This document shows positions 14,748 through 61,966 of a DNA stretch of 64,000 nucleotides, one piece after another; the stretch's first letter is position 1, and the number at the start of each line of letters is the position of its first letter. This DNA is from an uncultured Acidobacteriota bacterium (GTDB lineage Bacteria > Acidobacteriota > UBA6911 > RPQK01 > JAPXNP01). The notes under the pieces are model-generated. The model was not told the DNA's origin. It ran no database searches and worked only from the letters and a program-made list of their open reading frames with translations. The stretch covers positions 320,001-384,000 of the forward strand of contig CAVZRV010000010.1 in the NCBI GenBank assembly GCA_963777605.1, written 5' to 3'. Both the position numbers and the translations under genes were made by a program.

Positions 14748-15936
<1,189 letters not shown>

Positions 15937-16039
15937 AACGCTGACTCCCCCGAAAATCGTTTCCTTTTCTTTACAACCGGAAAGGTGCCTCAGGTGGCCC
16001 GCCGAACACGACACCCCCAGGCGCCGGAACGGTGAACAA

Positions 16040-20790: not shown

Positions 20791-20838
20791 TGGACATTTG
20801 TGATTTTTCCATTTTCTTTGATCTGTGATTTTTGAACT

Positions 20839-22985: not shown

Positions 22986-23544
22986 TCGTGACGGTACCCT
23001 GATCAAAGAGGTCAATTACCTAACCACCATCGACCAGCTAGCAATGCTCGACGGGTCCATCGAAGCGCTCCGCCTGGCCCACGCGGCAGGAATGGCGACC
23101 GTTCTCATTACGAACCAGTCCGCCGTCGCGCGCGGCATGCTCACAGAAACGGAACTCCAAAGAATTCACCACCACCTGTCCCGCCTGATTGTCGAAAAGG
23201 GAGGTGTGCTGGACGGTGTCTACTACTGCCCCCACCATCCCGAGGGATCGGTTGCGGGGTACGCCGCCCCCTGTCAGTGCCGCAAGCCGCAACCCGGACT
23301 CCTCCTGGCGGCCGCCCGGGAACTGGGATTGAATCTCTCCAAAAGCCTCATGGTTGGGGACAGCCTGAAGGACGTCGAGGCCGGCCGGAAGGCGGGGTGT
23401 ACATCCGTCCTCGTTGAGACTGGCTACGGAGCCCGCGAATCCGCGCTGATCGAGAACGGAGAGAACGGAGGGACAGTCCCCGACTACGTCGCCCCGGACA
23501 TCCTCGAAGCCGTTCGCTGGTTTCTCACCCGCCGCGAGGGCTGA
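22954..23544 (+). CDS. gmhB: D-glycero-beta-D-manno-heptose 1,7-bisphosphate phosphatase (HAD)
   Basis: FLDRDGTL, TNQSAVARG, YYCPHHP, CQCRKPQPG, MVGD. Confidence 0.93.
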   Translation: MKSRRPALFLDRDGTLIKEVNYLTTIDQLAMLDGSIEALRLAHAAGMATVLITNQSAVARGMLTETELQRIHHHLSRLIVEKGGVLDGVYYCPHHPEGSVAGYAAPCQCRKPQPGLLLAAARELGLNLSKSLMVGDSLKDVEAGRKAGCTSVLVETGYGARESALIENGENGGTVPDYVAPDILEAVRWFLTRREG

Positions 23545-23654
23545 ATTCCCGCCTCCAGCCAATCCGGGACAGACTCCGATTACCGTCCAGTGCGGCTGGC
23601 TTTCTGGGAGAACCGGCGAAGCAACATGCCGGGACGACATGCCAGGAGGGACCT

Positions 23655-23703
23655 CCGGGCTAAGGCTGCCCCGGCGACATATCAGGCAATCTGCCTGGAC
23701 TAC
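23655..23703. repeat. REP-like bipartite palindrome (copy 1)
   Basis: CAGGCA-ATC-TGCCTG-GACTAC (minus strand GTAGTCCAGGCAGATTGCCTG); aligns with 44694-44740. Confidence 0.5.
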
Positions 23704-23789
23704 CTTCGCCCCGTCAACTCGGTCTCCTGTCTCCTGTCTTCTAACCCCATTCCTGCTATGCTTACGGTCGTTCAAGTTGCCGAGGGACT

Positions 23790-24815
23790 ATGACTGGCCT
23801 TTCACCTGACGTTGCGCGCACCCTCGATGGGCTTGGCAAAGCCCGCCTGGTGGTGCTCGGGGACTTCCTCATCGATGAATTTGTATTTGGCGAAATCTCC
23901 CGGGTTTCCCGGGAAGCCCCGGTCCTGATCCTGCATTACAGCGAGACCCGAATCTGTCCAGGAGGAGCCGCCAACACCGTCGCCAATGCGGCAGCCCTCG
24001 GAGCTCGTGTGGACGCCATCGGGGTGATCGGCGACGACGCCGGGGCTGACCAACTGTGCGAACTCTGGCCGGAATCCGTGTCGCGAAGGGGTGTCATCAA
24101 GCTCGCCGGGGTTAATACCACCCGGAAGTCGAGGATTCTCGCGGGATCCTTTCATTCTTTCCGCCAGCAGGTTGTCCGAATCGACCGTGAAGCTCCCATC
24201 CCTCGCCAGCCGGAATGGGAACAGTCCGTAATCGATCACCTCAACGAATCGGTTCCCGGAGCCGGCGCAATGATCATTTCCGACTACAGCCTCGGCAACG
24301 TTACTCCGCGGGTCAAGGAATCCGCAACTGCGCTTTGCCGCAAGCTCGGCATCCCTCTCGTGATCGATTCCCGCGACCACCCTGCCGAGTTTCCAGGCGC
24401 AACAACGGTGACCCCCAACATCACGGAAGTAGAGTCCGGCCTCGGGGAACTGATCGGCCAGGAAACCGGGCGCCTCGAACATTTCGGAAGGCTGGCCCGC
24501 TCCAGGTGGCAGGTGGACGCGCTGCTGGTTACCCGGGGAAGGCTCGGCATGTCCCTCTTCACCGAGGATTCTGCGGTCCATCTCCCGGCTTTCGGCAGTA
24601 GTGAAGCCGTCGACGTCACCGGCGCAGGCGATACCGTTGCGGCCACCTATGCAACCGGCCTGGCCACAGGAGCCGACTTCTCGACTTCCGCGTTTCTCGC
24701 CAACATCGCCGGCGGACTGGTCGTCATGAAGAAAGGGACCGCAACCATTTCAACTGCGGAACTCAGGCAGGCGCTCCTGGAGATGGAGCCCGGAGAGGAA
24801 CTCCAACGCTCGTGA
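23790..24815 (+). CDS. hldA: heptose-7-phosphate kinase (stand-alone RfaE domain I, PfkB family)
   Basis: RVSREAPV, PGGAAN, ISDY, TPN, DVTGAGDTV, VMKKGTA. Confidence 0.88.
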   Translation: MTGLSPDVARTLDGLGKARLVVLGDFLIDEFVFGEISRVSREAPVLILHYSETRICPGGAANTVANAAALGARVDAIGVIGDDAGADQLCELWPESVSRRGVIKLAGVNTTRKSRILAGSFHSFRQQVVRIDREAPIPRQPEWEQSVIDHLNESVPGAGAMIISDYSLGNVTPRVKESATALCRKLGIPLVIDSRDHPAEFPGATTVTPNITEVESGLGELIGQETGRLEHFGRLARSRWQVDALLVTRGRLGMSLFTEDSAVHLPAFGSSEAVDVTGAGDTVAATYATGLATGADFSTSAFLANIAGGLVVMKKGTATISTAELRQALLEMEPGEELQRS

Positions 24816-25285
24816 CCAGCAAGATCGTCCTCCTCCCCGAAGCTGAGCGGATCCTGACAGAAGCCCGCAATCACGGCCGCACGATCGTTATGGCCAACGG
24901 CTGTTTCGACTTTATTCACGTGGGTCACGTCCGCTACCTGGAAGGGGCGAAGGCCAAAGGGGACCTCCTCCTGGTCGCGATCAACGCCGACGCTTCAGTT
25001 CGCGCCCTGAAGGGCAGCGAACGTCCCATCCTGCCCGCTGCCGAAAGGGCCGAGATCGTTGCTGCATTCGAGTGCGTCGATCTCGTCGTCGTCTTCGAAG
25101 ATCTGACCGTCGATAGTCTCCTGCTAAAGCTCAAGCCGGACGTGCACGCCAAAGGGACCGATTACACTACTGCCACCGTCCCGGAACGTGAGACGGTTCT
25201 CTCTTACGGGGGCAGAGTGGCCATTGTCGGCGATCCCAAGAATCGCTCCAGCAAGGATTACATCGCGCGCCTCAGGGCCAAATGA
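24812..25285 (+). CDS. hldC: heptose-1-phosphate adenylyltransferase (stand-alone RfaE domain II)
   Basis: ANGCFDFIHVGHVRYL, NADASVRALKG..RP, KPDVHAKGTDY. Confidence 0.9.
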   Translation: MTSKIVLLPEAERILTEARNHGRTIVMANGCFDFIHVGHVRYLEGAKAKGDLLLVAINADASVRALKGSERPILPAAERAEIVAAFECVDLVVVFEDLTVDSLLLKLKPDVHAKGTDYTTATVPERETVLSYGGRVAIVGDPKNRSSKDYIARLRAK

Positions 25286-26367
25286 AACGGGCTCCAGTCA
25301 GCTTTCAGTTCGATCACGATGGCCGCAGGATCCGGCGAATCCTCATGGTCCGGCTTGGAGCCCTCGGAGACATCATTCTTACGATTCCCGCCCAGCAGCA
25401 ACTCGCCGGTCTGTTCCCCCAGGCAGCGATCGACTGGCTGACCTCTCCCGCCTACCGTTCACTGCTCGAGGCAGTTCCCGGTATCCGCCAAGTCTGGACC
25501 GTCGATACCCGCAAGTGGGCAAAAGGTCGCCAGGTTCAGGACAGCCCGTCGCGGACGCTCAGCCAGCTCAGAAGAGAGAATTACGACCTTGCCATCGATT
25601 TCCAGGGACTCCTGAAATCTGCCCTCATGGCGCGACTTTCCAGCGCAGGTGAAGTGAGAGGCTTCGGCCGGACTCAGTCGCGGGAGGGCGCAGCGTCCTT
25701 CTTCTACACGGAACGCGTCCTGATCTCCAGCCAGCAACGACACCAGTTCGCCCGCCATATCGACCTGCTCAGCCCCCCGCGGTGGGAGGGTCCCGTGTCA
25801 CCAAGATTTCCGCTTCAGGTCCCGGACGAGGCCACCGATTACGTTGAGACCGAACTGCGCCGGGCAGGAATCGACCGACCTGTCCTCTTGAACCCGGGAG
25901 GCGGCTGGCCGACCAAGCGCTGGGCAGCGGACCGATTCGCTGAGCTCGCCGAACGGATCGAAGCGCAGTTCGGGCTTCCTGCTCTCTTCTGCTACGGCCC
26001 CGGGGAGGAGGACTTACTGGAGGCGGTCCGCAGGAGTCTCCGCCATGTCCCGCTGAGGTCGTTCCCCACGTCCGTGCTGCAGCTTGCGGCCCTCTGCCGG
26101 AAGGCATGCCTGATGGTCGCGGGGGACACCGGCCCGTTGCACCTGGCGGTCGGCATGGGGACCCCGTGCGTCGCCATTCTGGGTCCGGCTGAGCCTTGGA
26201 GAACGGGGCCGGCCGGCACAGGCGACGAGTACGTCTTGCATGACCGGCGCTGCCCGCACCCATACCGGCGCGAGTGTCGCAATCACTTTTGCATGGATAT
26301 CCCAGTCGAGCACGTGTTCGGAGCGGTTCGGAAGCGACTCGGTCTCCTACCCTCGTCGGGGTGCTGA
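25282..26367 (+). CDS. waaC: LPS heptosyltransferase I-like (GT9)
   Basis: RLGALGDI, IDFQGLLKSA, NPGGGWPTKRW, GDTGPLHLA. Confidence 0.82.
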   Translation: MKRAPVSFQFDHDGRRIRRILMVRLGALGDIILTIPAQQQLAGLFPQAAIDWLTSPAYRSLLEAVPGIRQVWTVDTRKWAKGRQVQDSPSRTLSQLRRENYDLAIDFQGLLKSALMARLSSAGEVRGFGRTQSREGAASFFYTERVLISSQQRHQFARHIDLLSPPRWEGPVSPRFPLQVPDEATDYVETELRRAGIDRPVLLNPGGGWPTKRWAADRFAELAERIEAQFGLPALFCYGPGEEDLLEAVRRSLRHVPLRSFPTSVLQLAALCRKACLMVAGDTGPLHLAVGMGTPCVAILGPAEPWRTGPAGTGDEYVLHDRRCPHPYRRECRNHFCMDIPVEHVFGAVRKRLGLLPSSGC

Positions 26368-37593: not shown

Positions 37594-37893
37594 CTATTCT
37601 GCCTCGGCCCGGCGCTTTCGGTGAATCAGGTAAAGGTTTCTGAAGTAAATCACTCCATTAAAGAGATAGCTGAGGATGAAAACCGGGTCTCGCCGCTCGA
37701 GCGCGTAGGACAGTAACAGCAGGCTACCCACGATACTCAGGTACCAGAACGACACCGGAATCACACTCTCCTTGCGCCGTTCCGAGACAATCCACTGAAC
37801 AACGAATCGGGATGTGAAGACCACCAGTCCCAAGAAACCGATGACTTCCCAGATTCCAACCCCATGTGCAAGGATCTCGTTCAACTTCTCCAT
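37594..37893 (-). CDS. lipid A biosynthesis N-terminal domain (LAB_N) small membrane protein
   Basis: IGFLG..VFTSRFVVQWIVSERRKESVIPVSFWYLSIVG..LLLSYA...DPVFI...YFRNL. Confidence 0.88.
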   Translation of the reverse strand: MEKLNEILAHGVGIWEVIGFLGLVVFTSRFVVQWIVSERRKESVIPVSFWYLSIVGSLLLLSYALERRDPVFILSYLFNGVIYFRNLYLIHRKRRAEAE

Positions 37894-39512
37894 CAGTTTT
37901 CCTCACCCGGCTGGGCCGGCATGACCCTGAACACCCGAATGATCTCGAGCGGAGGACGGCCGTCGAATCGATACGGTATCCGGCGGCGGATGACAGCATA
38001 GAAACCGGCTCGCGACTCCATGTCCATCGTTCGGATCGGAATCGAACCCGGGTAGACAAAACTCTCCACCAGCTTCAGTCGTTTACCCATCCCGGCTGGC
38101 CCGGAGAAGGCGTCACCAATGTGGACCTTCTCGGGCCAGACCAGCAAGTCTCCCGGGCTCGGATAGGGTCCGTCCCGGTTCATCATCTTCAACCCGGCCT
38201 GATCGGCATAGAACTTCCAGCCCCACTGTCCAACGTACCAGAGGTTCGCTTCGGCCTGGAACCGGGGAGCGATGTTCCGGGCAAAATCGCGGTAGGTGCC
38301 GGCATATTCGTAGTCCGCACCCTGCACAAGAAGAGCAGTGCCCAACTGGACAGCCAGCAGCAACCCGGCCAGTACCCCAATCCGATGCACGTGAGCCCGG
38401 TGCCGTTCAAACCAGCGAAAGAGCAACAGCAACAGCGGAGGAATCGCCACCAGCAGATGCCGCACCGCGTCGAATGGGACAAAGAAGGTCGCAAACGCAA
38501 CGTGGGACCCCAACCAGGCAAGAAGAAACAACGATTCGACGGACCAGTTGTCAGTGGCGGCACTGTGAACGGCGGCCGCCAGGAGAAAGACTCCCAGGAC
38601 CAGCCAAACCGAGAAGCCGGTGTCCCAATCAGAATCGTAGAAGCGACAGCTCCACCAGACGATCAACAGGGCGACCAATACCGTCGCTGCCAGCGTCTTC
38701 CAACACCGGCTCACGCCGAGCACCCAGGCCACCAGGGGAGACAGGTAGACCGCCGAACCCAGGATCGCCAGGGCGCTCAGGAACTTGTCCGGCCACTTTA
38801 TCCCCGAATCGCTAACCCTGTTGAGGAGAAGGTAAACCGGGTGAATCTGCCCGTAGACCACCCAGGTAAACAGGCACCAGGCACCCAGGATCGCTGCCGA
38901 CACCGATAACCAGAAAACCCACAGTGGGCGCCGCCTCAGGAGAGTGTAGAGGGCCGCCACCGGCAGGATGACTCCGACCGAGTATTTCGCCAGGACGGCG
39001 AGCCCCAACAACACGCTGCCGGCAAGCGCCTTTCCCCGATCCGAATCGTCCACGCCTTCCAGGAACCATGCGAGCCCGAGTAGAGCCAGACCCGCCGCAG
39101 GGATGTCCCGCATCAGGTTCCCGGAAACCAGAAAGGGAGCCGAGCCCACCAGAAAGAGGGTCGGCATCCACGCCTCGTCAGTGAAACGACGCGCGACGAG
39201 GAACATGCCCCAGGCAAAAAAGAGATAAAACGGAACCATCGCCAGATGCAGCCAAAGCTCACCCTTGCCCCACACCGCCACTACCGGAGCAAGCCAATAG
39301 CTGACCAGGGGGGGGTTGGTCGTCGTGCTCCAGACCGGGGCGAGATGGCCGAACCAGTTGAATTCCCCGCCGAAAGGATCGGCAGGATGAGCCAGTATTC
39401 GGTCGGTAATGTGGAGTACGAAGGTGTCGTCGATGTGAACCGGCTTGTCGAGGAAAGGCAGCGTCAGGCTCAATACGATGAGGCTGAGAAGTAGCATTGG
39501 GCGTCGGCGCAT
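37893..39512 (-). CDS. ArnT/PMT-like GT-C membrane glycosyltransferase
   Basis: KPVHIDD acidic loop after TM1, NPPLVSYWLA, GLAVLAKY, many TM segments, soluble C-terminal domain. Confidence 0.78.
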   Translation of the reverse strand: MRRRPMLLLSLIVLSLTLPFLDKPVHIDDTFVLHITDRILAHPADPFGGEFNWFGHLAPVWSTTTNPPLVSYWLAPVVAVWGKGELWLHLAMVPFYLFFAWGMFLVARRFTDEAWMPTLFLVGSAPFLVSGNLMRDIPAAGLALLGLAWFLEGVDDSDRGKALAGSVLLGLAVLAKYSVGVILPVAALYTLLRRRPLWVFWLSVSAAILGAWCLFTWVVYGQIHPVYLLLNRVSDSGIKWPDKFLSALAILGSAVYLSPLVAWVLGVSRCWKTLAATVLVALLIVWWSCRFYDSDWDTGFSVWLVLGVFLLAAAVHSAATDNWSVESLFLLAWLGSHVAFATFFVPFDAVRHLLVAIPPLLLLLFRWFERHRAHVHRIGVLAGLLLAVQLGTALLVQGADYEYAGTYRDFARNIAPRFQAEANLWYVGQWGWKFYADQAGLKMMNRDGPYPSPGDLLVWPEKVHIGDAFSGPAGMGKRLKLVESFVYPGSIPIRTMDMESRAGFYAVIRRRIPYRFDGRPPLEIIRVFRVMPAQPGEEN

Positions 39513-39652
39513 GCGCAAGCTACTTTAGCCGAAAAGGCACCCGACCTCCAAAAGCCTGCTCGCCTCAATCCGGATTTTCAGACAGTTCGGATAAGATGAT
39601 AGGGGTGTTGCTTTCCTGAATCAGCGTTGAAGGCCAGCCCTCGAGATCAAAC

Positions 39653-48331: not shown

Positions 48332-49243
48332 ATGGCCAGAAAGGTTTCGCTTTTCGCTCTCGCCACTGTTTTCTCCACCTGGTTCGTTGCGGTCAGTACA
48401 GCCGCACCAGCCGGAATCGACTCACTCCTTGCTCCCGGCGCAAAACTGGAGAAGATCAGCGGTGATTTCACCTTTACCGAAGGGCCGGCGGCGGACCAGG
48501 ATGGGAACGTGTACTTCACCGATCAGCCGAACGATCGAATCATGAGATACGGCGTGGATGGACGTCTAACGGTTTTCCGCTCGCCGTCCGGTCGTTCCAA
48601 TGGTCTCTATTTCGATCTCGACGGGCGCCTCCTGGCGTGTGCCGACGAGCAGAACCAAATCTGGTCGATCGGCCCGGTTGGTGACCCGGTGGTCCTGGTC
48701 AGGCAGTACCGCGGTCACTTGCTCAACGGCCCCAACGACCTCTGGGTCCACCCTTCCGGAGCGGTCTACTTTACCGACCCGTTCTACAAGCGTCCCTACT
48801 GGAAACGGGGCCCCTCCGAACAGGATGTGCAGGGTGTTTACCGCCTCTCTCCCGACCGAAAGGCCGTGAAGCGGGTCGTCGATGAACTGGTTCAACCAAA
48901 TGGAATCATTGGAACGCCCGACGGGACCCGGCTCTACGTCGCCGATATTGGTGCCGGGAAGACGTACCAGTACCGGATCACCCCCTCGGGAGACCTGACC
49001 GAAAGGCAACTGTTTTGCGAGATGGGCTCCGACGGCATGACCATAGACAGCGACGGCAACGTGTACCTGACCGGCAAGGGGGTCACGGTGTTCAACCCGG
49101 AAGGAAAGGAGATCGGCAACCTAACGATTCCGGAGCCTTGGACGGCCAATGTCACCTTTGGCGGTGCCCATCGCCAGACCCTCTTTATTACCGCTTCCAA
49201 GGGCCTCTATGCCATCCTGCTTCGCACTCACGGAGCACTTTGA
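48332..49243 (+). CDS. SMP-30/gluconolactonase family protein (exported)
   Basis: Signal peptide, FTFTEGP, NGPND, QPNG, SDGMT, ANVTFGG; GGAGG SD. Confidence 0.9.
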   Translation: MARKVSLFALATVFSTWFVAVSTAAPAGIDSLLAPGAKLEKISGDFTFTEGPAADQDGNVYFTDQPNDRIMRYGVDGRLTVFRSPSGRSNGLYFDLDGRLLACADEQNQIWSIGPVGDPVVLVRQYRGHLLNGPNDLWVHPSGAVYFTDPFYKRPYWKRGPSEQDVQGVYRLSPDRKAVKRVVDELVQPNGIIGTPDGTRLYVADIGAGKTYQYRITPSGDLTERQLFCEMGSDGMTIDSDGNVYLTGKGVTVFNPEGKEIGNLTIPEPWTANVTFGGAHRQTLFITASKGLYAILLRTHGAL

Positions 49244-49659
49244 TTCCTGTGATCCGGATCACATCTGGGGTGGTGACCGGGAGCTATCCTCAGCGCGGTG
49301 TTGTTCCGACAATCAAGCTCAGTGATGGTCGCTATATTGCCAATACTGACAATGTTCTTGTAATTCGGATTCAGCAGACTGCGCGCTTCAAACCGAGCAG
49401 TTTTCACGCGGCAGCGGATACAGCGGAAACTCTGATGGGCTGGGTACGAAGGAAGTACGAAGTTAGGGATTGTCGCTTCGAGGACCTCACCTGCGAGCAG
49501 CAGGATTTGGTCAGACGATGGTACAACCTCGAAATGCTGGGCAACGGCCCGGAACGAAGATTCAACATCTACTCCCAGTCTGACCCGCTGGTCTGCAAGG
49601 GTCTGAGTCCGGTCTCCCTGGTCTTCTGCGGGCCCCGGGACTTCGACCGGAGCGGCTGA
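49240..49659 (+). CDS. hypothetical protein (139 aa)
   Basis: TTG overlapping the upstream TGA, GGAG upstream; fills an otherwise empty gap; no family recognised. Confidence 0.4.
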   Translation: MIPVIRITSGVVTGSYPQRGVVPTIKLSDGRYIANTDNVLVIRIQQTARFKPSSFHAAADTAETLMGWVRRKYEVRDCRFEDLTCEQQDLVRRWYNLEMLGNGPERRFNIYSQSDPLVCKGLSPVSLVFCGPRDFDRSG

Positions 49660-49856
49660 CCCGTTGACCTTCCCCTGTTCCAGAGCATTCCCGGTTGCTC
49701 CAACTTGCTCTCCTCCAGGTGCTTCTACCAGTGGGACAGACTCTTATGACGTCAGCTGCGGGTTGCGCCGGATCATGATTTTCGTCAACATGACGGCGAA
49801 GTTCGAAACCAGCATCGACCTCGGGATGTCGTGGCTGCAAAAGGAGATTTTCAAGG

Positions 49857-50576
49857 ATGGCTCAGGATATTCCGCCCCGGGTCGAGCCGGCGGCTGGCAA
49901 GGGCGCGAAGACCACACTCTGGCGTCCGATAGTACTGCTGGGGGGGCTGGTCACGCTCATCGTGCTCGCCCGGGTTTTCAACCTCGGGCAATACCTTGGC
50001 TCGTTGCGAGAGTGGATTGAGAACCTGGGCCCGATGGGACCCGTGGTCTTCATCCTCATTTACGCGGTTGCCGTCGTCGCCGCCATTCCGGCGAGCCTGT
50101 TGACGGTTGCAGCCGGTGCCCTTTTCGGTTCGGCCCTCGGGATTGCAGTGGTCAGCCTGGCCTCTACCCTGGGAGCGGCACTGGCGTTCCTGGTCGCCCG
50201 ATATTTCGCTCGTGACTCGATCTCTGCCTGGTTGAACGGGAAAAAGACTTTCCGCCGTCTCGATGAAATGACCGAAACTCACGGAGCGACGATTGTCGCT
50301 CTGACGCGACTCGTCCCGATCTTCCCGTTCAATCTCCTCAATTACGGATTCGGGTTGACCCGCGTGCCGTTTTGGACCTACGTTTTCTGGTCCTGGCTTT
50401 GCATGCTCCCCGGTACCTTTGTATTCGTGCTGGGAGCGGACGCCGTCACGAGAGCGATTACCGGTGGTGAAGTCCCCTGGATTCTCATCATTGCCATCGT
50501 AATGGCAATCGTGATCCTCGGTTTCCTCGTTAAGTTCGCCCGAGGCCGGCTGCAAAACAGGGGGGAGAAGGCCTGA
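49857..50576 (+). CDS. TVP38/TMEM64 (DedA/VTT) membrane protein
   Basis: LTVAAGALFG, LGAALAFLVARYFAR, RLVPIFPFNLLNYGFGLT, MLPGT. Confidence 0.92.
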   Translation: MAQDIPPRVEPAAGKGAKTTLWRPIVLLGGLVTLIVLARVFNLGQYLGSLREWIENLGPMGPVVFILIYAVAVVAAIPASLLTVAAGALFGSALGIAVVSLASTLGAALAFLVARYFARDSISAWLNGKKTFRRLDEMTETHGATIVALTRLVPIFPFNLLNYGFGLTRVPFWTYVFWSWLCMLPGTFVFVLGADAVTRAITGGEVPWILIIAIVMAIVILGFLVKFARGRLQNRGEKA

Positions 50577-50579
50577 GGC

Positions 50580-52100
50580 ATGGAGCACTTACCATCGCTT
50601 CTGTTGAACGACCCGCACGACCGGGAATTGAAAAACCGGGTCGGCCCAAAGGACTGGAACAACCCCAAACCGGCGCGTCGTTACAATCTCGTGGTCATCG
50701 GAGCCGGCACCGCAGGGCTCGTCTCGGCCGCTGCGGCCGCAGGCCTCGGTGCCCGGGTCGCCCTTGTTGAGCGACGATTGATGGGAGGAGATTGCCTGAA
50801 TTTCGGCTGCGTGCCTTCCAAAGCACTGATTCGTGCGGCACGTGCCGCTGCAGGTGCCCGCATATCTGCTGAGCTTGGAATAGGCCTGAGTGATGCCGCG
50901 GTTCAAGCAGACTTCTCCAGAGTGATGGACCGCGTCCGGCGCCTGCGCGCCGAAATCAGTCAAAACGACTCGGTGGAACGATTCACCAGGCTGGGCGTCG
51001 ACGTATTCCTGGGCAACGCGAAATTCATCGATCACAGAACGGTCGATGTGGATGGCCTGAAACTGCGCTTCAAACGTGCCGTGATCGCGACGGGAGCCGG
51101 TCCGGCTCAACCCGATATTCCGGGGCTGGATATCGCGGGGTTCTTGACCAACGAAACCGTCTTCTCGCTTAACACGCTGCCCTCGCGACTGCTCATTGTC
51201 GGTGGTGGGCCGATCGGCTGCGAACTGGCCCAGGCGATTGCCCGTCTCGGCTCAAAGGTGACGATCGTTGAAGCCCAGTCCCGTTTCCTGGCGAGAGAAG
51301 ATGCCGAGGCCGCGGAAATCCTCGGCCGGGCGCTGGCCCGGGATGGAATCGAGATCCGCCTCGACACCAAAGTCTCACGAGTGGTCCCTCGGGACAACGT
51401 GAAACAGGTGCAGCTGGTTTCCGGGGATCAGTCCGAGAAGCTTGAATTCGATGAGATCCTCGTGGGCGTTGGACGGATTCCGAACATCCAGGATCTCAAC
51501 CTGGAAGTCGCCGGGGTCCACTACAGAAACAGCGGCGTCCAGGTCAACGACCGCCTTCAGACCACCAACCCCAGGATCTTCGCGGCCGGGGACGTGTGCC
51601 TGCCGTACAAATTCACCCACACCGCCGATGCGTCCGCACGCATCGTGATCCAGAATGCCCTTTTCTTTGGAAGTCGAAAGGTAAGCAGTCTCACCATCCC
51701 CTGGTGCACTTATACAAGTCCAGAAGTTGCCCACGTGGGCCTTTACGAGAAGGATGCCCAGGCCAAGGGAATCGAGGTGACAACCTTCAAGGTCCCTTTG
51801 AGCGAAGTGGACCGGGCTGTGCTGGACGGCGAGACAGAAGGGTTCGTCAAAATCCACGTCAAACAGGGGACCGACGAGATCATCGGTGCCACGATCGTGG
51901 CCGAACACGCCGGGGAGTTGATCAGCGAACTCAGTGTTGCCATCGTCGGGGGAATCGGACTGGGTCGCCTCTCTAATGTGATTCATCCTTATCCCACACA
52001 GGCGGAGGCGATTCGAAAAGCGGCCGACCAGTACAATCGGACCCGCCTGACGCCGACTGTCAAGAGCGCATTGAAGGCCTGGTTCAAGCTGACTCGTTGA
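50580..52100 (+). CDS. class I pyridine nucleotide-disulfide oxidoreductase (MerA/Lpd-like)
   Basis: GAGTAG, GGDCLNFGCVPSK, GGGPIGCE, AAGD, HPYPTQAE; lacks the C-terminal Cys-Cys of MerA. Confidence 0.88.
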   Translation: MEHLPSLLLNDPHDRELKNRVGPKDWNNPKPARRYNLVVIGAGTAGLVSAAAAAGLGARVALVERRLMGGDCLNFGCVPSKALIRAARAAAGARISAELGIGLSDAAVQADFSRVMDRVRRLRAEISQNDSVERFTRLGVDVFLGNAKFIDHRTVDVDGLKLRFKRAVIATGAGPAQPDIPGLDIAGFLTNETVFSLNTLPSRLLIVGGGPIGCELAQAIARLGSKVTIVEAQSRFLAREDAEAAEILGRALARDGIEIRLDTKVSRVVPRDNVKQVQLVSGDQSEKLEFDEILVGVGRIPNIQDLNLEVAGVHYRNSGVQVNDRLQTTNPRIFAAGDVCLPYKFTHTADASARIVIQNALFFGSRKVSSLTIPWCTYTSPEVAHVGLYEKDAQAKGIEVTTFKVPLSEVDRAVLDGETEGFVKIHVKQGTDEIIGATIVAEHAGELISELSVAIVGGIGLGRLSNVIHPYPTQAEAIRKAADQYNRTRLTPTVKSALKAWFKLTR

Positions 52101-52161
52101 ACTTCCCCTCTCTATTGAGGTAAAAGAGGTTATCGAGAAAGCCTCCCATAATTCCGATCGT

Positions 52162-52884
52162 ATGTACGAGGAACCGAGACGCAACCAGGCCGTACTGGTC
52201 TTTGCTCGTGATATCAGCCTTGACCTGCGGCGGCGGGGATGGGGCCAGCGCCTGAGACAACTGCTGCAGATTCCCCGGTTTCTCGCCGAAGAGGACGCGG
52301 ATGTTCATATCTTCACGTCCCCGTCGTCTGTCGATACTCTTAGGGCCAAATTCCCCTGGGCGGGTGTCCACTCCCAGTCGGGATCCAACTTTGCCGAGTG
52401 CCTCGAACGGGCGGTCGGTGAGTTGGTGGACGACGGCTATGGAAAGATCGTAATCGTAGGTCGGGACTGCCCCGAACTGACGTTCGACGATGTTCACAGC
52501 GCTTTCCGGGAACTGGATGGGAAGCGACTCGTTCTCGGTCCGGACCACCAAGGCGGACTCTACCTGATTGGACTTCACGTCGAGGACCTGGACCTCCTCA
52601 AGGGTATCGACTGGCAACAGGACTCCGACTTCTCGCAGATCTCGGCCCGGGTTCCGGTGGACAGGACCTTCATCCTTCCCACCCGCCACGACCTCGACTC
52701 GACAATTGACCTCCGCAGTTTGCTTCGTGCAGGTGGCGCCGTTGCCGACCTGGTGAGGTTCCTCATTGGAGTCCTCCGCGCAACGGCGTTGAAAGTGGCT
52801 TCGGGGCCACGACCCCTGCGGAGGGTCAGAGAAATTCTGAGCTGGCAACTGCCCCCGCCTTCAGTCCGTTCGCCTCTAGCCTAG
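52162..52884 (+). CDS. DUF2064 / TIGR04282-like transferase (arsenosugar-associated)
   Basis: QSGSNFAECL, VIVGRDCPEL, VLGPDHQGGLYLIG, IDW, HDLD. Confidence 0.8.
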   Translation: MYEEPRRNQAVLVFARDISLDLRRRGWGQRLRQLLQIPRFLAEEDADVHIFTSPSSVDTLRAKFPWAGVHSQSGSNFAECLERAVGELVDDGYGKIVIVGRDCPELTFDDVHSAFRELDGKRLVLGPDHQGGLYLIGLHVEDLDLLKGIDWQQDSDFSQISARVPVDRTFILPTRHDLDSTIDLRSLLRAGGAVADLVRFLIGVLRATALKVASGPRPLRRVREILSWQLPPPSVRSPLA

Positions 52885-52959
52885 GCTCCTGTTTCAATCC
52901 AAGCATTTCACACAGCCCGTATAGGAGAGGATGGGCCCTGACGGTCCATCGGCAAGATA

Positions 52960-53997
52960 ATGAAGACGCTCAAGGCATCCAACCATCAACTGTCCGCTCC
53001 CCTGGTTCAGCTCCAGGTCATCGAGTCAGGGGACCCACTAACCCCCACTTTCGACGACGTGCTGAACCGGATCGGACTTCACCCCCTGACGCCGATCCGA
53101 ATCGAAATTCTCCAGGTGAACGTCGGCAAGCTTTGCAACCAGACATGCAACCACTGTCATGTCGATGCAGGCCCTGATCGCACCGAGGTGATGAGCCGCG
53201 AAACCATGGTCCACTGTCTGGACGTCCTCCGGAATTCGGATATCGAGTTCCTGGACATCACCGGTGGAGCTCCCGAGCTCAACCCCAACTTTCAGTGGTT
53301 TGTCTCGCAGGCCAGGGAGATCGGAAAGAAGATCCTGGTGAGGAGCAACCTGACCGTTCTGACAACTCGGAAGATGGAAGATATGCCCCTCTTCTTCGCT
53401 GAAAACCAGGTTACAGTGATCTCTTCCCTCCCCTGCTACACGGCCGAGAATACCGACCGCCAGAGGGGAGAAGGCGTCTTTGAGCGTTCGATCCAGGCAC
53501 TTCGGAAGCTGAACGCATTGGGCTATGGGCACGAAGGAAGCGGCCTGGAACTGCACCTCGTCTACAATCCGGGCGGGCCCTCCCTTCCTCCGGCCCAGGA
53601 ACTTCTCAAGGCGGACTACAAGCATGTGCTCGCTGAAGAATACGGGATTATGTTCAACGAACTGTTCTGCATAACGAACATGCCGATCAGCCGATTCCTG
53701 GACTACCTCATCCAGCAGGGAAAGCTGGCAGGATACATGCACAAGCTCGTGGATGCCTTCAACCCGTCGGCGGCCGAAGCCGTCATGTGCCGCAACACGC
53801 TCTCGGTCGGATGGGACGGGCGGCTCTACGACTGTGATTTCAATCAAATGCTCGATCTGGGAGTAAATTCCAGGTCGCCCCGACATATCAAGGACTTCGA
53901 CCTGGAAGTGCTGACCCGGCGGCACATCGTCACTCGCAGACACTGTTTCGGCTGCACCGCGGGAGCCGGTTCCAGCTGTAAGGGAGAGATCGCGTAA
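52960..53997 (+). CDS. arsS: arsenosugar biosynthesis radical SAM protein ArsS
   Basis: LQVNVGKLCNQTCNHCHVDAGP, DITGGAPE, SSLPCY, LVYNP, NMPISRF, YDCDFNQML, HCFGCTAGAGSSC. Confidence 0.93.
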   Translation: MKTLKASNHQLSAPLVQLQVIESGDPLTPTFDDVLNRIGLHPLTPIRIEILQVNVGKLCNQTCNHCHVDAGPDRTEVMSRETMVHCLDVLRNSDIEFLDITGGAPELNPNFQWFVSQAREIGKKILVRSNLTVLTTRKMEDMPLFFAENQVTVISSLPCYTAENTDRQRGEGVFERSIQALRKLNALGYGHEGSGLELHLVYNPGGPSLPPAQELLKADYKHVLAEEYGIMFNELFCITNMPISRFLDYLIQQGKLAGYMHKLVDAFNPSAAEAVMCRNTLSVGWDGRLYDCDFNQMLDLGVNSRSPRHIKDFDLEVLTRRHIVTRRHCFGCTAGAGSSCKGEIA

Positions 53998-54974
53998 TGT
54001 CCACCCAGGATTACCTGAACACGACGAAAGATGTCTATCGAAAAGCAGCCCTCACCCCCCAGGAGGGTCTCTGCTGCACGACCTCCCCAGTCTGGCAGCT
54101 TCCCGAACTCCAGATTCCAACCAGGATGCTGGAAATGAATTACGGGTGCGGCAGCACGATTCATCCCCGGGATCTTTCGGGTTCTCCGACAGTGGCATAC
54201 GTGGGAGTCGGGGGCGGCATGGAACTGCTTCAATTCGCCTACTTCACGCGTCGGGACGGCGGCGTGATCGGCATCGACCCGGTTCCTGAAATGATCGGTG
54301 CCTGCCGGCAGAACCTGGCTACTGCAGAAGCCACCAATCCCTGGTTTCGGGAGAGCTTCGTCGATCTGCGGGAAGGTGACGCACTTTCCCTGCCGGTCCC
54401 GGACGGCAGTATCGACGTTGCCGCCCAGAACTGCCTGTTCAACATCTTTCGTGCCGGCGACCTTCGAACGGCGCTTTCGGAGATCCACCGCATCCTGCGG
54501 CCGGGAGGACGACTGGTGTTATCCGACCCGGTGTGCGAACAGCCGATTCCCCTGAACCTTCGCGACGATGAGTGCCTGAGGGCCGAGTGCCTGAGCGGCG
54601 CAATCAGCCTCTCCGAGTACCTGGGCACCCTGGAATCGATCGGCTTCGGAACCATGGAAATTCGCGCCAAGCGACCCTACCGGGTTCTCGATCCCGTGCA
54701 TTACGCAACCGACGAACTGATCTACATCGAGAGTGTCGAAATCTGCGCCATCAAGGACCCGCTGCCCGATGACGGTGCCTGCGTCTTTACCGGGAGAACG
54801 GCCATCTACTACGGGCGGGATAGCGAGTTCTCGGATGGCAAGGGACACGTTATGAAGCGGAACCAGCCGCTCGCGATCTGCGACAAGACGGCGGGCAACC
54901 TGTCCCGCCTGCGCCGCGACGACTTGTGGATTTCTGATTCGACATTTTTCTACGACGGCGGGGGCTGCTGCTGA
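53997..54974 (+). CDS. arsM: arsenite S-adenosylmethionine methyltransferase (ArsS-associated type)
   Basis: GLCCTTSP, MNYGCGST, YVGVGGGMELLQFAYF, AQNCLFN, CLSGA, C-terminal YDGGGCC; TAATG coupling to arsS. Confidence 0.9.
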   Translation: MSTQDYLNTTKDVYRKAALTPQEGLCCTTSPVWQLPELQIPTRMLEMNYGCGSTIHPRDLSGSPTVAYVGVGGGMELLQFAYFTRRDGGVIGIDPVPEMIGACRQNLATAEATNPWFRESFVDLREGDALSLPVPDGSIDVAAQNCLFNIFRAGDLRTALSEIHRILRPGGRLVLSDPVCEQPIPLNLRDDECLRAECLSGAISLSEYLGTLESIGFGTMEIRAKRPYRVLDPVHYATDELIYIESVEICAIKDPLPDDGACVFTGRTAIYYGRDSEFSDGKGHVMKRNQPLAICDKTAGNLSRLRRDDLWISDSTFFYDGGGCC

Positions 54975-54977
54975 GCT

Positions 54978-55086
54978 GAAACTTCAATTTGGATGAGTTG
55001 GAAATCCTGGATGATTTGGACGCGTCAGGTTGGAGATTCGGGCGATCGGTGGAGAGCCAGGGACGCGATTATCGGCTGGTTCCTGG
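54978..55086 (+). repeat. dispersed ~110-bp GGA-rich repeat (copy A)
   Basis: Hand alignment to the reverse complement of 60970-61077: about 78/109 identical with one gap. Confidence 0.8.
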
Positions 55087-55133
55087 TCAGGTGCCAGACG
55101 TGGATGAGTGATGATCACAGGATCGGCGCCGGG

Positions 55134-55154
55134 CTGGCCCCTGAAAGGGGCCAG
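55134..55154. terminator. hairpin between convergent arsM and GT-C genes
   Basis: CTGGCCCCT-GAA-AGGGGCCAG perfect 9-bp stem followed by TTT. Confidence 0.6.
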
Positions 55155-55156
55155 TT

Positions 55157-56653
55157 TCACTTATTGAATGATCCCGCTGCTCTGCAGGCAGGAGTTTTCC
55201 TGCACCGGAGCAGGGTCCAGAGGACCCCTCCCCACAGTATGGAATGTTCGACGGTCCTGGCCGCCACCCACCAGGCGTCGGCCAGGTGTCGATACTCCAC
55301 CAGGAAGCGAAGGTAGTAGAGGCAGAGTGCACCTGCAAAAACCGTCACCAGCGGTGCCAGGCGCCGGCTCAAGGTAGCCAGAGCGAGAAGCGGAACCGAG
55401 TACCAGGGATAGGGGGTCGGAATCAGCAGGAACCAAGTCAGGAGGACCCAGACTGCGCTTTCGACGACCCGCTCTTCGGTCGGTCTCCGCAGAATGAGCC
55501 AGGGTATTATCCAGGCTCCCATTCCAATCACGGCCGCAGCAGCAGTCCGCGCATGCCCCTGAAAGAGATAGTCGAACAGGCTGAAGACACCCTCGTTCAT
55601 GCGCCACTGGGAGGCGTACGCTCGAAATCCCTCCGTGAGCGACTCCCACCCGATTCCGAGGAAAGGCAGCCAGCCGGCCACGACCACGCCCCATACGAGA
55701 ACAAGAAACATCAGTACTCTCCAGGGACGTTCCCCCGAACGGACCATCAGAATCAGGGCCCACGGAAGCAGAATGACGGGGTAGATCTTCCCCAGTACTC
55801 CCAGCGCCATAAACGCGGCTGCCAGAGCCGTCCACAACTGCGAGGACTTCCGCAGATTCTTCAAAAGGGCCCAAATCGAAAGCAGCAGGAAAACCGCTAC
55901 CAACACGTCAAAGTGGGCCGAATTGGTGATCTCTTTCAGAACCAGCGGATTCCAGCCGTAGAGAAGAACCCGGTGGGAGCTCCTCTCGAAGCGCCTCAGC
56001 AACCCCACAAGCAGCCCCATCACGATGAGGTCCAGAACCAGGAAAACTGCTCGCTGCCCTTTCCAGTTCCACCTTCCGATCCAGGCTCCCACTGCAAACG
56101 CAGCCTGGGCTGCCGGCGGATACACAGTCGGAATGTAGCTGTAGCTGATGCGGGACAAGGCCAAGAGCGCATCGGGCGATTCAAGCGACTCTCGGAGCGA
56201 CCCTTCAGCCTCGGACACAATCTCGCCCGGGGACCACTCAAAAGGGTTTTGCCCTCGGATAAGAGCATTTCCATCAAGAACGTAGCGATAGACGTCGTTT
56301 TCCTGGATGAGGCCGGAAGGAAAAAGAATCAGCCGGGCCAGGACCGATACCAGCACAATAAACCAGAACGGCGGGAACCGGCCACGGTTCAGACGCAGGA
56401 ACCCCAGAGCAAAGACCAGCCAGGCCAGGAGGTACGCCGCCAAAAAGGCAGGAATCGGGCGGTCGGCATGACCTTCGCCAAACACGAACTGACCACTCAA
56501 CAGGGTCCACGTCCCGACCGAGAGGAGGAGGCCCAATCCCAGCATGAACCATCGCCAGTCAAGGCGAGCCTCGAATCCATCCGAGCCGTCCAGGCTCCTA
56601 CCCGGGACCTCACCTCCGGTCGTCAACGTATTGTTCGGGGCCCTTGTCATCAA
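55157..56653 (-). CDS. GT87-like (GT-C fold) membrane glycosyltransferase
   Basis: ENDVYRYVLDG, PTVYPPAAQ, YGWNPLVLKE...AHFD, KIYP, YPWY; multiple TM segments. Confidence 0.8.
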   Translation of the reverse strand: MMTRAPNNTLTTGGEVPGRSLDGSDGFEARLDWRWFMLGLGLLLSVGTWTLLSGQFVFGEGHADRPIPAFLAAYLLAWLVFALGFLRLNRGRFPPFWFIVLVSVLARLILFPSGLIQENDVYRYVLDGNALIRGQNPFEWSPGEIVSEAEGSLRESLESPDALLALSRISYSYIPTVYPPAAQAAFAVGAWIGRWNWKGQRAVFLVLDLIVMGLLVGLLRRFERSSHRVLLYGWNPLVLKEITNSAHFDVLVAVFLLLSIWALLKNLRKSSQLWTALAAAFMALGVLGKIYPVILLPWALILMVRSGERPWRVLMFLVLVWGVVVAGWLPFLGIGWESLTEGFRAYASQWRMNEGVFSLFDYLFQGHARTAAAAVIGMGAWIIPWLILRRPTEERVVESAVWVLLTWFLLIPTPYPWYSVPLLALATLSRRLAPLVTVFAGALCLYYLRFLVEYRHLADAWWVAARTVEHSILWGGVLWTLLRCRKTPACRAAGSFNK

Positions 56654-56680
56654 CTTCAGTTCCGCGCGATCTTCTGCAAG

Positions 56681-56710
56681 GTCTTCCTCAAGAGTGTCTT
56701 CCTCAAGAGT
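56681..56710. repeat. perfect 15-bp tandem duplication
   Basis: GTCTTCCTCAAGAGT x2 in a divergent intergenic region. Confidence 0.85.
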
Positions 56711-56764
56711 TGTGTGAAATTCCGAATTAGTTTACCCTGCCCGAATTCGGCCGGCTGATAACCT

Positions 56765-57463
56765 ATGCCTGATCTGCGAATTTCTGTCATCGTACCGGTT
56801 CTCAACGAGGCTCAGGGCCTGGCCCTCACACTGCAGGCCTGCCGGGACCCACACGTTGCGGAAATTGTCGTTGTCGACGGTGCCAGTGACGACGGCACCC
56901 CACAGATCGCCGCGGATCTGGGGGCGCGGGTCATTGAATCGGCTCGAGGGCGGGCGTCACAAATGAACGCCGGCGGTTTTGCCGCCACTGGCAATATTCT
57001 TTTGTTCGTCCACGGCGATACCCTGCTGCCGCCGGAATTCGGCACAGAGGTCTTTACGACGTTGAGCCAACCGGGCACAGCGGCAGGAGCGTTCCGGCTC
57101 CGGATTGGAAGCACAGAGTTCAGTTACCGGCTCATCGAACGGATGGCGAACTGGAGGTCGCGCCTCCTCGGTCTTCCCTACGGAGACCAGGCGCTGTTTC
57201 TTCCTCGGGAGACGTTTCTTGCAACCGGAGGATTTCCCCTGCTGCCCATCATGGAAGATCTCGTGTACGTCCGGTCGCTCGGAAAGCTGGGGCGAATTGC
57301 GATCTCCCGGCAGTCGGTCATCACATCCGCCCGCAGGTGGAAACGAACCGGGATCTGGAAAATGACCCTGATCAATCAATTTGCACTTCTGTCTTATTTT
57401 GCCGGATCCGACCCTGATCGAATTACCCGCTGGTACCGCTCCAGGACCACGAGGATCGAATAG
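56765..57463 (+). CDS. TIGR04283-like GT2 glycosyltransferase (arsenosugar-associated)
   Basis: SVIVPVLNEA, VVDGASDD, GRASQMNAG, LFVHGD, LPYGDQALF, PIMED, TSARRW. Confidence 0.9.
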   Translation: MPDLRISVIVPVLNEAQGLALTLQACRDPHVAEIVVVDGASDDGTPQIAADLGARVIESARGRASQMNAGGFAATGNILLFVHGDTLLPPEFGTEVFTTLSQPGTAAGAFRLRIGSTEFSYRLIERMANWRSRLLGLPYGDQALFLPRETFLATGGFPLLPIMEDLVYVRSLGKLGRIAISRQSVITSARRWKRTGIWKMTLINQFALLSYFAGSDPDRITRWYRSRTTRIE

Positions 57464-57571
57464 CCGCGTTTTTTTCTGGAAAAGTTGAAACATTCTATTA
57501 CGTTCAAACATCTTATTGATTGTGAAGGCAAGATAGAGGGAGCACCCCCTCCCTCACTCCTCCTCCCCTCG

Positions 57572-57598
57572 GTGAGCCCGTTCCCCAGGCGGGCTCAC
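57572..57598 (+). terminator. 9-bp perfect hairpin
   Basis: GTGAGCCCG-TTCCCCAGG-CGGGCTCAC; no clear U tract. Confidence 0.45.
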
Positions 57599-57675
57599 TA
57601 CCTCCATGTTTCCGACCGCTTTTTCCCATAGACTATTCCTGCACAACGGTTACACAGCTCGAAAGGAGACGAACA

Positions 57676-58548
57676 ATGAATGTTGGATTTATCGGATTGG
57701 GAATCATGGGCCGCCCGATGGCCCTTAACCTGGCCAAGGCCGGCTTTTCGCTGAAGGCCTACAACCGGACCCGGAGTCGTGCAGAGGAAGTCCAGGGCCC
57801 CTCGATCCAGATCGTTGAGTCTCCGGCAGAGGTCGCTGCGGATTCGGAAGTGATCATTGTGATCGTCACCGACTCGGATGCGGTCCGGGAGGTTATTGCT
57901 GGTCCCGACGGTATCCTTTCGGGCATTCGTCCCGGCACCATCGTCATCGACATGAGTACAATTGCTCCGGCCGTGGAAAGAGAGCTTGCAGAGGCCCTCG
58001 AATCGAGAGAAGCCGTCTTGATCGATGCCCCGGTTTCCGGTGGCGACGTGGGAGCCCAGAAGGGGACACTCGCCATCATGGCGGGCGGCCCTCGCGAAGC
58101 CTTTGACAAGGTTGCGCCCGTATTGGAGGCGATGGGCAAGACGATCACTTACTGCGGACCGGTCGGCAACGGCCAACTGACCAAGTTGTGCAACCAGATC
58201 CTGGTCTCCATCAACCTTCTGGCCGTCTCGGAGGCTATCTCGTTTGCGCGGCGCAACGATCTTAACCCGAAAGTCATGATCGAAGCGATCCAGGGCGGCG
58301 CGGCGGGCAGCTGGCAGCTCAGCAATCTCGGACCTCGCATCGCCGACCACGATTTCGCCCCCGGGTTCATGATCGACCTGATGCAAAAAGATCTCAAGCT
58401 GGTTCTTCAGGCCGCGGATCGTTCTTTTGCCACGCTTCCGGCTGCCTCGCTCGTCCACCAGCTCTTCAACTCGGCCCAGGCCAGGAACCTCGGCAGAGAA
58501 GGAACACAGGCACTGGCTCAAATCGTCGACCAGCTCAACCAGCTTTGA
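57676..58548 (+). CDS. beta-hydroxyacid dehydrogenase (GarR/3-hydroxyisobutyrate dehydrogenase family)
   Basis: GFIGLGIMGRPMA, DAPVSGG, TKLCNQ, FAPGF, KDL. Confidence 0.9.
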   Translation: MNVGFIGLGIMGRPMALNLAKAGFSLKAYNRTRSRAEEVQGPSIQIVESPAEVAADSEVIIVIVTDSDAVREVIAGPDGILSGIRPGTIVIDMSTIAPAVERELAEALESREAVLIDAPVSGGDVGAQKGTLAIMAGGPREAFDKVAPVLEAMGKTITYCGPVGNGQLTKLCNQILVSINLLAVSEAISFARRNDLNPKVMIEAIQGGAAGSWQLSNLGPRIADHDFAPGFMIDLMQKDLKLVLQAADRSFATLPAASLVHQLFNSAQARNLGREGTQALAQIVDQLNQL

Positions 58549-61080: not shown

Positions 61081-61966
61081 TCAGCGGTGCTGGCAATTGG
61101 GGCAGAAGTGGGTGCTCCGCTGCGTGATGACGATCCGCACGATCTGGCTCGCGCACCTCGGGCACGGCTCTCCGTTCCGTCCATAGACGTTCAGTTCATC
61201 CTGGTTGGTGCCCACCTCTCCGTCGCTGTTGATGTAGTCTCGAAGTGACGTGCCGCCGAACGCGATACCCTTCCTCAAAACTGCGGGAATCGCGTCGAAC
61301 AGCCGATCTTTCTCTGCCCGACGGAGATATCGAACCCGCTTTGCCGGATGAATGCCAGCCTCGAACAACGCTTCGTCCGCGTATATGTTCCCGATACCCG
61401 CGACGAAACGCTGATCGAGGAGAAGCGCCTTGATCTTCACCTTTAGACCGCTTTCGAATAGCCGAAAGAAACGACTCCCGGGTGTAGTCGGCCGACAGCG
61501 GCTCCGGCCCCATTCCCTGAAACAGCCGCTCGACCGCATTCCCGCCGCGCGGAATCAGGATTACCTTGCCGAACATTCTCGGATCACGCAGCATGAGCGT
61601 ACGCCCGTCGAGAAGACAAACCTGCAAATGAGTGTGCCGGTCGGCCGGATGCTGCCGCACGCGCTGGAGGCCGGTGACAGGCTGGCGCAGGAATCGAGGG
61701 GAATCCGGCTGATCAGGGTCCCGGAGCGTCAACTGCCCCGTCATCCCGAGGTGAATAATCAGAATGTCCCGATCGAGATGAAAGAGAAGGAACTTGCCCC
61801 GGCGGGTCAGGAGGTTCACCGCCTGTCCCGGCAACCGCGTCGCTAGTTCCGCGGAGCTGGTCTGAAAAATCCGGGCGTCGGTTGCCTCGATGTGAGCAAT
61901 CTGTTGCCCGATGAGCCGGGGCATCAGTCCGCGACGAATTGTCTCAACTTCAGGCAGTTCCGGCAT
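61081..61966 (-). CDS. mutM: formamidopyrimidine-DNA glycosylase (frameshift near 61444)
   Basis: MPELPEVE, RRGKF, HLGMTG, DPRMFG; second frame KALLLDQ..AGIGNIYADEAL, CPRC..RSTHFCPNCQ. Confidence 0.94.

Follow-up and report, generated by a model that had tools for sequence, protein, structure and literature searches.

An ArsM-ArsS gene cluster beside a candidate membrane glycosylation module in an acidobacterium, and a possible route for its arseno-ribose

The cluster and its host genome

Genes for arsenosugar synthesis and genes for membrane glycosylation stand side by side at 49857-57463 of a 64,000-nucleotide stretch of DNA, called the window below, which is positions 320001-384000 of contig C10 in an acidobacterial assembly of 6.7 Mb and 53 contigs. 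Gene identities were taken from open reading frames (ORFs) by Pfam and NCBIfam profile scans with curated cut-offs. The first five genes are closely packed on the forward strand. They encode a DedA/VTT-domain membrane protein (49857-50576; 239 amino acids (aa), six hydrophobic segments; PF09335, 102.5 bits against a threshold of 33.9), a class I FAD/NAD(P)H disulfide reductase with a CLNFGC redox pair (50580-52100; NF004991, 802 bits, cut-off 620), a divergent DUF2064 paralogue (52162-52884; PF09837, 77 bits; TIGR04282, 77 bits, cut-off 134), ArsS (52960-53997; TIGR04167, 452.8 bits, cut-off 300) and the arsenosugar-type arsenite methyltransferase ArsM (53997-54974; NF038099 'AsSugarArsM', 530.3 bits, cut-off 400), whose start overlaps the stop of ArsS. 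ArsS is a radical SAM protein with a C-terminal, cysteine-rich DUF3641 domain (PF12345, 182.7 bits), and its translation shows a CNQTCNHC motif and a C-terminal GSSC, the Cys form; the match of ArsM to NF038099 spans positions 2-321 of the 321 in the profile. Next comes a GT87/MptB-like GT-C membrane glycosyltransferase on the reverse strand (55157-56653), convergent with ArsM; 111 bp separate it from a divergently oriented TIGR04283 GT2 on the forward strand (56765-57463; 244 bits, cut-off 182; no hydrophobic segment). All seven genes named in an initial annotation, made from the letters alone, were found in place, and its tentative assignment of the DNA to an acidobacterium is backed, at the level of Acidobacteriota, by the nearest loci and by the names of the organisms from which homologues come. 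A sigma-70 promoter scan of 49000-58000 gave two sites, no excess over the mean of 2.3 in shuffled sequence.

The identity of the GT-C is drawn from its relatives. Its own Pfam match is sub-threshold (PMT_2, 20.8 bits against 26.1), NCBIfam has no match for the GT-C or for DedA, and a search of PDB sequences returned nothing for the GT-C profile and nothing for DedA. Homologues number 193 at E <= 0.001 among 8000 candidates scored: those of 76% and about 50% identity carry PF09594 GT87 / PF26314, all of the five closest others (P0002-P0006) carry GT87 and two of them also MptA_B, and many lower-ranked ones have no precomputed Pfam domain. In the ESM Atlas the nearest clusters are GT87/MptA_B (0.99), and the protein itself has 11 hydrophobic segments, a conserved LIQENDVYRY loop and invariant E117 and D119. 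The assignment draws on these homologues, clusters and hydropathy together with a profile of 32 homologues (A1), which is specific for the family: within the window's own genome this GT-C is its only match.

Is this an arsenic resistance locus? No ArsR, ArsC, Acr3 or ArsB family was found among the 16 ORFs of the cluster region, nor any ars resistance family at E <= 1e-5 when the 96 ORFs of 95 aa or longer elsewhere in the window were scanned, a length limit that a short ArsR could escape; the initial annotation had likewise seen none of the four genes in the window. Elsewhere in the genome, a resistance operon lies on contig C31 at about 199000-204000 (L162, 6971-12288) and encodes an ArsP-like permease, a thioredoxin, a second ArsM-type methyltransferase of only 272 aa, Acr3 and an ArsC of the low-molecular-weight phosphatase type. 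A broken copy of Acr3 is present on C11, and ArsB was not found genome-wide. The C31 region also holds DsbD_2. The cluster in the window is separate from this operon, which agrees with the earlier proposal of biosynthesis rather than detoxification. As described in PMC13598754, ArsS adenosylates dimethylarsenite to give 5'-deoxy-5'-dimethylarsinoyl-adenosine, for which Cheng et al. 2021 is the biochemical source cited in PMC12159101, and PMC10456119 describes phytyl 5-dimethylarsinoyl-riboside of Dunaliella, a natural isoprenoid-linked arsenoriboside.

Set beside its counterparts in other genomes, where more complete versions also have DUF547, TIGR04282, an AglJ-like GT2 and a large GT2, the set in the window is a reduced form, without DUF547, TIGR04169 or a phosphorylase in the cluster. 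No remnant of DUF547 was found in the 613-bp gap at 49244-49856 (best tblastn E 0.21). TIGR04169 is absent from the window, and its best match in the genome reaches 41.7 bits against a cut-off of 120. The sole genomic copy of DUF547 (C29), a TIGR04282 gene (C7) and a second NF004991 reductase (C35) lie in unrelated contexts, while MTAP, a nucleoside phosphorylase, is encoded on C27.

The candidate glycosylation module beside ArsS

Does the arrangement recur elsewhere? A GT87/MptB-like GT-C lies in or beside ArsS clusters of varied gene order. Such arrangements were found in four lineages of acidobacteria, in Bdellovibrionota and in metagenome operons of Bacteroidota type. Profile A1 found 69 GT-C loci in 50 of the species genomes, and in seven of these loci ArsS lies within 10 kb: five belong to close acidobacterial relatives with the synteny of the window (L008, L009, L025, L033, L037) and two to Bdellovibrionales (L053, L065). 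In a 68-row tree of the GT-C family, the window clusters with L008, L009 and L033, with a Shimodaira-Hasegawa-like approximate likelihood-ratio test (SH-aLRT) value of 91. The two Bdellovibrionales carry DedA and the reductase in one ORF, of 713 aa (L053, 10506-12644) and 740 aa (L065, 13314-15533), in a cluster that also contains PHO4, ArsS, ArsM, MTAP (285 bits, over the cut-off), TIGR04283, DUF547 and GT-C; adjacency or fusion of DedA and an NF004991 reductase is thus found in genomes other than the present one.

Other loci join the parts in other ways. In the acidobacterial genome G338 (L138) one operon runs DedA, reductase, DUF547, DUF2064, an unnamed gene, GT-C, GT2, ArsM and ArsS, and in G095 (L151) GT-C follows ArsS. 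In G057 (L155) a 700-aa ORF on the reverse strand (1278-3380) fuses a GT87-like domain (residues 158-382) to a GT2 domain (466-595) that is most like the TIGR04283 protein of the window (110 bits), and this fusion ends an operon of ArsS, DUF2064, a 206-aa gene, a flavoprotein-polyferredoxin, DUF547 and a large GT2. A matching open frame of 699 aa exists in G076 (C276), of the same genus. Two low-GC contigs of Bacteroidota type that bear a type IX secretion system (L214, L228) have a 12-gene, single-strand operon consisting of TIGR04169, ArsS, a rhodanese (NF045521), TIGR04282, purine nucleoside phosphorylase, ArsM, DUF547, TIGR04283, a small membrane protein, an AglJ-like GT2, a 496-aa GT2 and, at its end, a GT87-like GT-C. 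Only these two of the Bacteroidota-type operons reach the GT-C position, as the contigs of L199, L213, L224, L227 and L237 end earlier. Both GT-C and DedA, then, recur near arsS in several lineages, and the co-occurrence whose absence would have refuted the initial annotation is borne out.

The two glycosyltransferases are coupled to each other as well. Across phyla the GT-C family adjoins a small GT2, and four such GT2s that were scanned, three adjacent to a GT-C and the one of L214, resemble dolichyl- or polyprenyl-phosphate hexose synthases (AglJ, 116-129 bits; matches to PpgS and DPhHxTase). A row of reductase, PHO4, GT-C, TIGR04283-like GT2 and MTAP-like phosphorylase was also observed in an elusimicrobial contig (L055, 7095-13332) where ArsS was not found. 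TIGR04283 and GT-C remain paired in L010, L022 and L023; ArsS of L022 is on a different contig of a 30-contig assembly, and the contigs of L010 and L023 are short, so that no separation from ArsS is demonstrated in these two. The pairing in these three loci, the fusion seen in two congeneric genomes and an odds ratio (OR) of 8.9 for genome-wide co-occurrence uphold the coupling of GT2 and GT-C that had been proposed.

That ratio comes from 301 Acidobacteriota genomes (including three flagged as unpublished, G099, G074 and G202) searched family by family, in which ArsS was found in 59, GT-C in 112, TIGR04283 in 98 and the NF004991 reductase in 77. GT-C is present in 69 of 98 genomes with TIGR04283 and in 43 of 203 without it, and the reductase in 69 of 98 and 8 of 203 (OR 58). 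For ArsS the corresponding figures are 39/59 against 73/242 with GT-C (OR 4.5), 39/59 against 59/242 with TIGR04283 (OR 6.1) and 25/59 against 52/242 with the reductase (OR 2.7). GT2, GT-C and reductase associate more with one another than with ArsS. The arsenosugar ArsM family, NF038099, exceeds its cut-off in just 12 of the 301 genomes. In regions centred on the GT-C, taken from 20 genomes with ArsS and 20 without, the genes next to it include a large GT2, DUF547, a small GT2 or DUF2064 in 15/20 and 18/20, respectively.

For these observations we favour, at about even chances, the explanation that ArsM and ArsS docked into an older, arsenic-independent membrane glycosylation module, and that arseno-ribose enters its GT2/GT-C pair. 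The module would consist of the TIGR04283 GT2 at the cytoplasmic face, the GT87/MptB-like GT-C at the outer face and DedA paired with the NF004991 reductase. ArsM and ArsS, to judge from their families, would convert arsenite into dimethylarsenite and this into 5'-deoxy-5'-dimethylarsinoyl-adenosine. A nucleoside phosphorylase, encoded within the cluster in other phyla and here possibly supplied by the housekeeping MTAP on C27, would free the arseno-ribose from the adenosine adduct. The small GT2 may load a sugar onto polyprenyl phosphate and the GT-C may pass it to a lipid or envelope acceptor, and in genomes with ArsS and ArsM the freed arseno-ribose would be the sugar that enters this pair, to end as a membrane- or envelope-bound conjugate. 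The DedA-reductase pair would serve the module itself and not the reduction of arsenic. Transfer of the arsenosugar by way of a lipid carrier is a plausible candidate step.

Weighing the proposed arseno-ribose route

Several observations weigh against this explanation, and some concern the module where ArsS is absent. TIGR04283 and GT-C occur together without ArsS in 45 genomes, and TIGR04283 and the reductase in 47. Five genomes of the same order (G240, G186, G065, G126, G290; L285-L289) hold a block of GT2, reductase and DedA in the absence of ArsS and of any NF038099 match at E <= 1e-40; DUF547 stands beside this block in three of them only (L285, L287 and L289, of G240, G065 and G290). ArsS is lacking from 37 of the 50 genomes that hold a relative of the GT-C and present in 13, and 27 of the 36 rows in the main acidobacterial GT-C clade represent genomes in which no ArsS was found; because of these two counts, the GT-C cannot be regarded as tied to ArsS. 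Among genomes with TIGR04283, GT-C is not commoner where ArsS is present (24/39) than where it is not (45/59). Among those without TIGR04283 it is commoner with ArsS (15/20 against 28/183), and many of these 20 carry sub-threshold TIGR04283-like genes. All the odds ratios given above overstate, because related genomes are not independent. The partner genes are absent near the GT-C in eight close relatives (L013, L014, L016-L018, L024, L028, L046), and single genes have been lost among the kin of the cluster: ArsM in L008 and L009, DedA in L008, the reductase in L037 and DUF547 in the window. The DUF2064 of the window is degenerate, the conserved N-terminal AKxPxxGxVKTRL being absent from it (alignment A3). 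Lastly, the known arsenosugars are ribosides of the glycerol type, for which no GT-C is needed.

The company of ArsS in general has the same bearing. Forty ArsS-centred, 20-kb acidobacterial regions (L121-L160) and 80 metagenome ArsS loci (L163-L242) were surveyed. Only three of the 40 regions contain a GT-C (L138, L151, L155), while in 25 ArsS has no company but a small CMD/AhpD-like gene immediately upstream; an ArsM-like gene is near ArsS in ten, DUF2064 in eight, DedA in six and an NF004991-type reductase in five. In the 80 metagenome loci the CMD gene is found in 62, DUF2064 in 36, ArsM in 23, a small GT2 in 22, a nucleoside phosphorylase in 19, DUF547 in 16, GT-C in three, one of them weak, and DedA in one. 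The commonest partner of ArsS in both sets is this small AhpD-like gene, TIGR04169, and there is often no ArsM within 10 kb.

Such figures speak for a different explanation, in which the neighbours have separate jobs: ArsM and ArsS, together with enzymes of the cytoplasm, would make a soluble organoarsenical for tolerance, GT2, GT-C and the DedA-reductase pair would make an ordinary envelope glycoconjugate, and the linkage would come from shared regulation or a favoured insertion site. We consider this somewhat unlikely. The wide occurrence of the module without ArsS, GT-C orthologues of 43-50% identity in genomes where ArsS was not found, the lack of a positive link between ArsS and GT-C once TIGR04283 is fixed and the many ArsS genes that stand beside the CMD/AhpD gene only are all in its favour. 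It has more difficulty with the fact that ArsS and ArsM joined the same module in at least six lineages, in varied orders and often in tight single-strand operons (L138, L155, L214), whereas a gene with one copy in the window's 6.7-Mb genome would fall by chance within a given 20-kb span in about 0.4% of genomes.

What, then, does the reductase do? The initial annotation let it regenerate As(III) species. Its distribution lends this no support, since it follows TIGR04283 (69 of the 77 reductase genomes) and not ArsS, and it sits with DedA, GT2 and DUF547 where neither ArsS nor the arsenosugar ArsM is present. The solved chain nearest to it is a mercuric reductase (301 bits); an assignment as MerA was rejected, as TIGR02053 gives 412 bits, below its cut-off of 454, and the translation has no C-terminal Cys pair. 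The resemblance nevertheless allows an explanation in terms of metalloid or thiol chemistry, in which the MerA-like reductase would receive a soft metalloid or thiol-reactive species from DedA, after the logic of MerT and MerA, and GT2, DUF547 and GT-C would conjugate the reduced species to sugar; arsenic would be one of several substrates, with selenium or sulfur as others. The fusion of a MerA-like reductase to DedA is in keeping with it, as are the recurrent partners rhodanese (NF045521), AhpD-like TIGR04169 and DUF547 (fused to glutaredoxin in plants), the selenoprotein forms of TIGR04167 mentioned in PMC13188914, and the versions of the module without ArsS, in which radical SAM enzymes of other kinds occur with an ArsP_1 permease and a TOBE-domain regulator. 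The missing C-terminal cysteines of MerA count against it, and no feature here names the substrate, nor does any of these proteins have an established chemistry; we judge it unlikely.

The other enzymatic role given earlier, activation of the arseno-ribose by DUF2064, is likewise not supported for the copy in the window. It is below the TIGR04282 cut-off, matches positions 45-189 of that profile only, lacks the N-terminal motif and has no counterpart in the five syntenic relatives L008, L009, L025, L033 and L037. Loss of this nucleotide-binding-like N-terminal stretch is common to the window and L123. The TIGR04282 copy that passes the cut-off stands alone elsewhere in the genome (C7:355924).

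Three ArsS-less acidobacterial loci (L277, L280, L281) combine a cut-off-passing TIGR04282, GT-C and an AglJ-like GT2 with radical SAM enzymes other than ArsS, among them SPASM types and a member of the Rv1681 family (475 bits), and with an ArsP_1 permease, an ArsM-like methyltransferase, a TOBE-domain regulator and DoxX/DoxD. In G070, which has no TIGR04167, an ORF of great length, part of which is ArsM-like (L294, 2054-5779), lies beside DUF2064, GT2, DUF547 and reductase. A bolder generalization may also be considered, that bacteria share a general route whereby an adenosyl-transferring radical SAM enzyme makes a 5'-substituted adenosine, its ribose is moved to polyprenyl phosphate by a TIGR04283/AglJ-like GT2, and a GT87-like GT-C transfers it to the envelope; ArsS would act for arsenic and other radical SAM enzymes in the clusters without ArsS. 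We think this improbable. If it were true, an arsenic-bearing lipid or glycan would be expected in the envelope here, and the late steps of arsenosugar and arsenolipid synthesis would have their first genes.

The losses among relatives raise one more question: is the cluster in this lineage a decaying remnant that no longer makes a defined product? Only two of the six syntenic relatives (L025, L033) keep the whole set. In L008 (11440-14604) ArsS is kept and ArsM and DedA are gone; in L009 (11392-13642) ArsS is kept and ArsM survives as fragments of 20 and 37 residues; L037 is without the reductase; and the window is without DUF547, with a degenerate DUF2064 and a genome devoid of TIGR04169. 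Decay is, all the same, very unlikely in our opinion: ArsS, ArsM, reductase, GT2 and GT-C of the window are full-length with end-to-end profile matches, despite frameshifts of the assembly in housekeeping genes. SecY (4334-5735), EF-Tu (14751-16014) and Fpg (61084-61966) are each split into two overlapping ORFs in the window, most likely by assembly indel errors, while the cluster genes are full-length. Apart from the cluster, an ORF with LAB_N, the N-terminal domain of lipid A biosynthesis, is followed by a 541-aa ORF without a Pfam match (37597-39518, reverse strand), which may be another membrane glycosyltransferase near the lipopolysaccharide core genes at 19465-26364.

Known systems and the catalogued arsenosugar set

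The core of the arsenosugar pathway is already catalogued. NCBIfam has a set of 'arsenosugar biosynthesis' families (TIGR04167, TIGR04169, TIGR04282, TIGR04283, NF038099, NF045521), of which the window contains TIGR04167, NF038099 and TIGR04283; it lacks TIGR04169 and the rhodanese, and its DUF2064 is below the TIGR04282 cut-off. GT-C, DedA, the NF004991 reductase and DUF547 are outside this named set, and the DUF547 of L214 has no NCBIfam match. The name 'arsenosugar biosynthesis glycosyltransferase' over-reaches for TIGR04283, because the family is found in 59 of the 242 acidobacterial genomes where ArsS was not found. The annotation name has already been taken as an arsenic-detoxification trait in PMC13077682. 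In the full-text literature, a scope to which subscription papers including the original ArsS and ArsM reports do not belong, no paper was found that ties arsenosugar genes to GT-C, DedA or DUF547, and none that assigns genes to the steps after ArsS in arsenosugar or arsenolipid synthesis. Concrete candidates for these steps are offered by the GT2/GT-C pair, by DedA with its reductase and by DUF547. As the same neighbours occur in many bacteria without ArsM and ArsS, they are to be regarded as candidates for late steps and not as arsenic-specific genes.

Three known systems bear comparison with the cluster. For the arsenic part this is the cyanobacterial pathway of Synechocystis, which shares the families of ArsM and ArsS and their order of action, methylation by ArsM and then adenosylation of dimethylarsenite by ArsS. 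Here, in contrast, the host is an acidobacterium, and ArsM and ArsS stand beside a GT-C, a DedA-reductase pair and a GT2. For the glycosylation part, pairs of a polyprenyl-phosphate sugar synthase and a GT-C are known in ArnC/ArnT, in Ppm1/PimE, the latter of GT87, and in the decaprenyl-phosphoribose/arabinose system with Emb/Aft. The window's TIGR04283 GT2 resembles the known synthases weakly (AglJ, 39.5 bits), and the likeness is in the arrangement: a small cytoplasmic GT2 that adjoins or is fused to a multi-pass, GT87/MptB-type GT-C, and a DedA as candidate carrier flippase nearby. The third is the hopanoid side-chain route of HpnH and HpnG, in which a radical SAM enzyme adds a 5'-deoxyadenosyl group and a PNP_UDP_1 enzyme then removes the adenine. 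Although the substrate here is arsenic instead of hopene, and the cluster of the window is without a phosphorylase, the same two elements, radical SAM adenosylation and genes for PNP or MTAP, come together in the fuller arsenosugar clusters.

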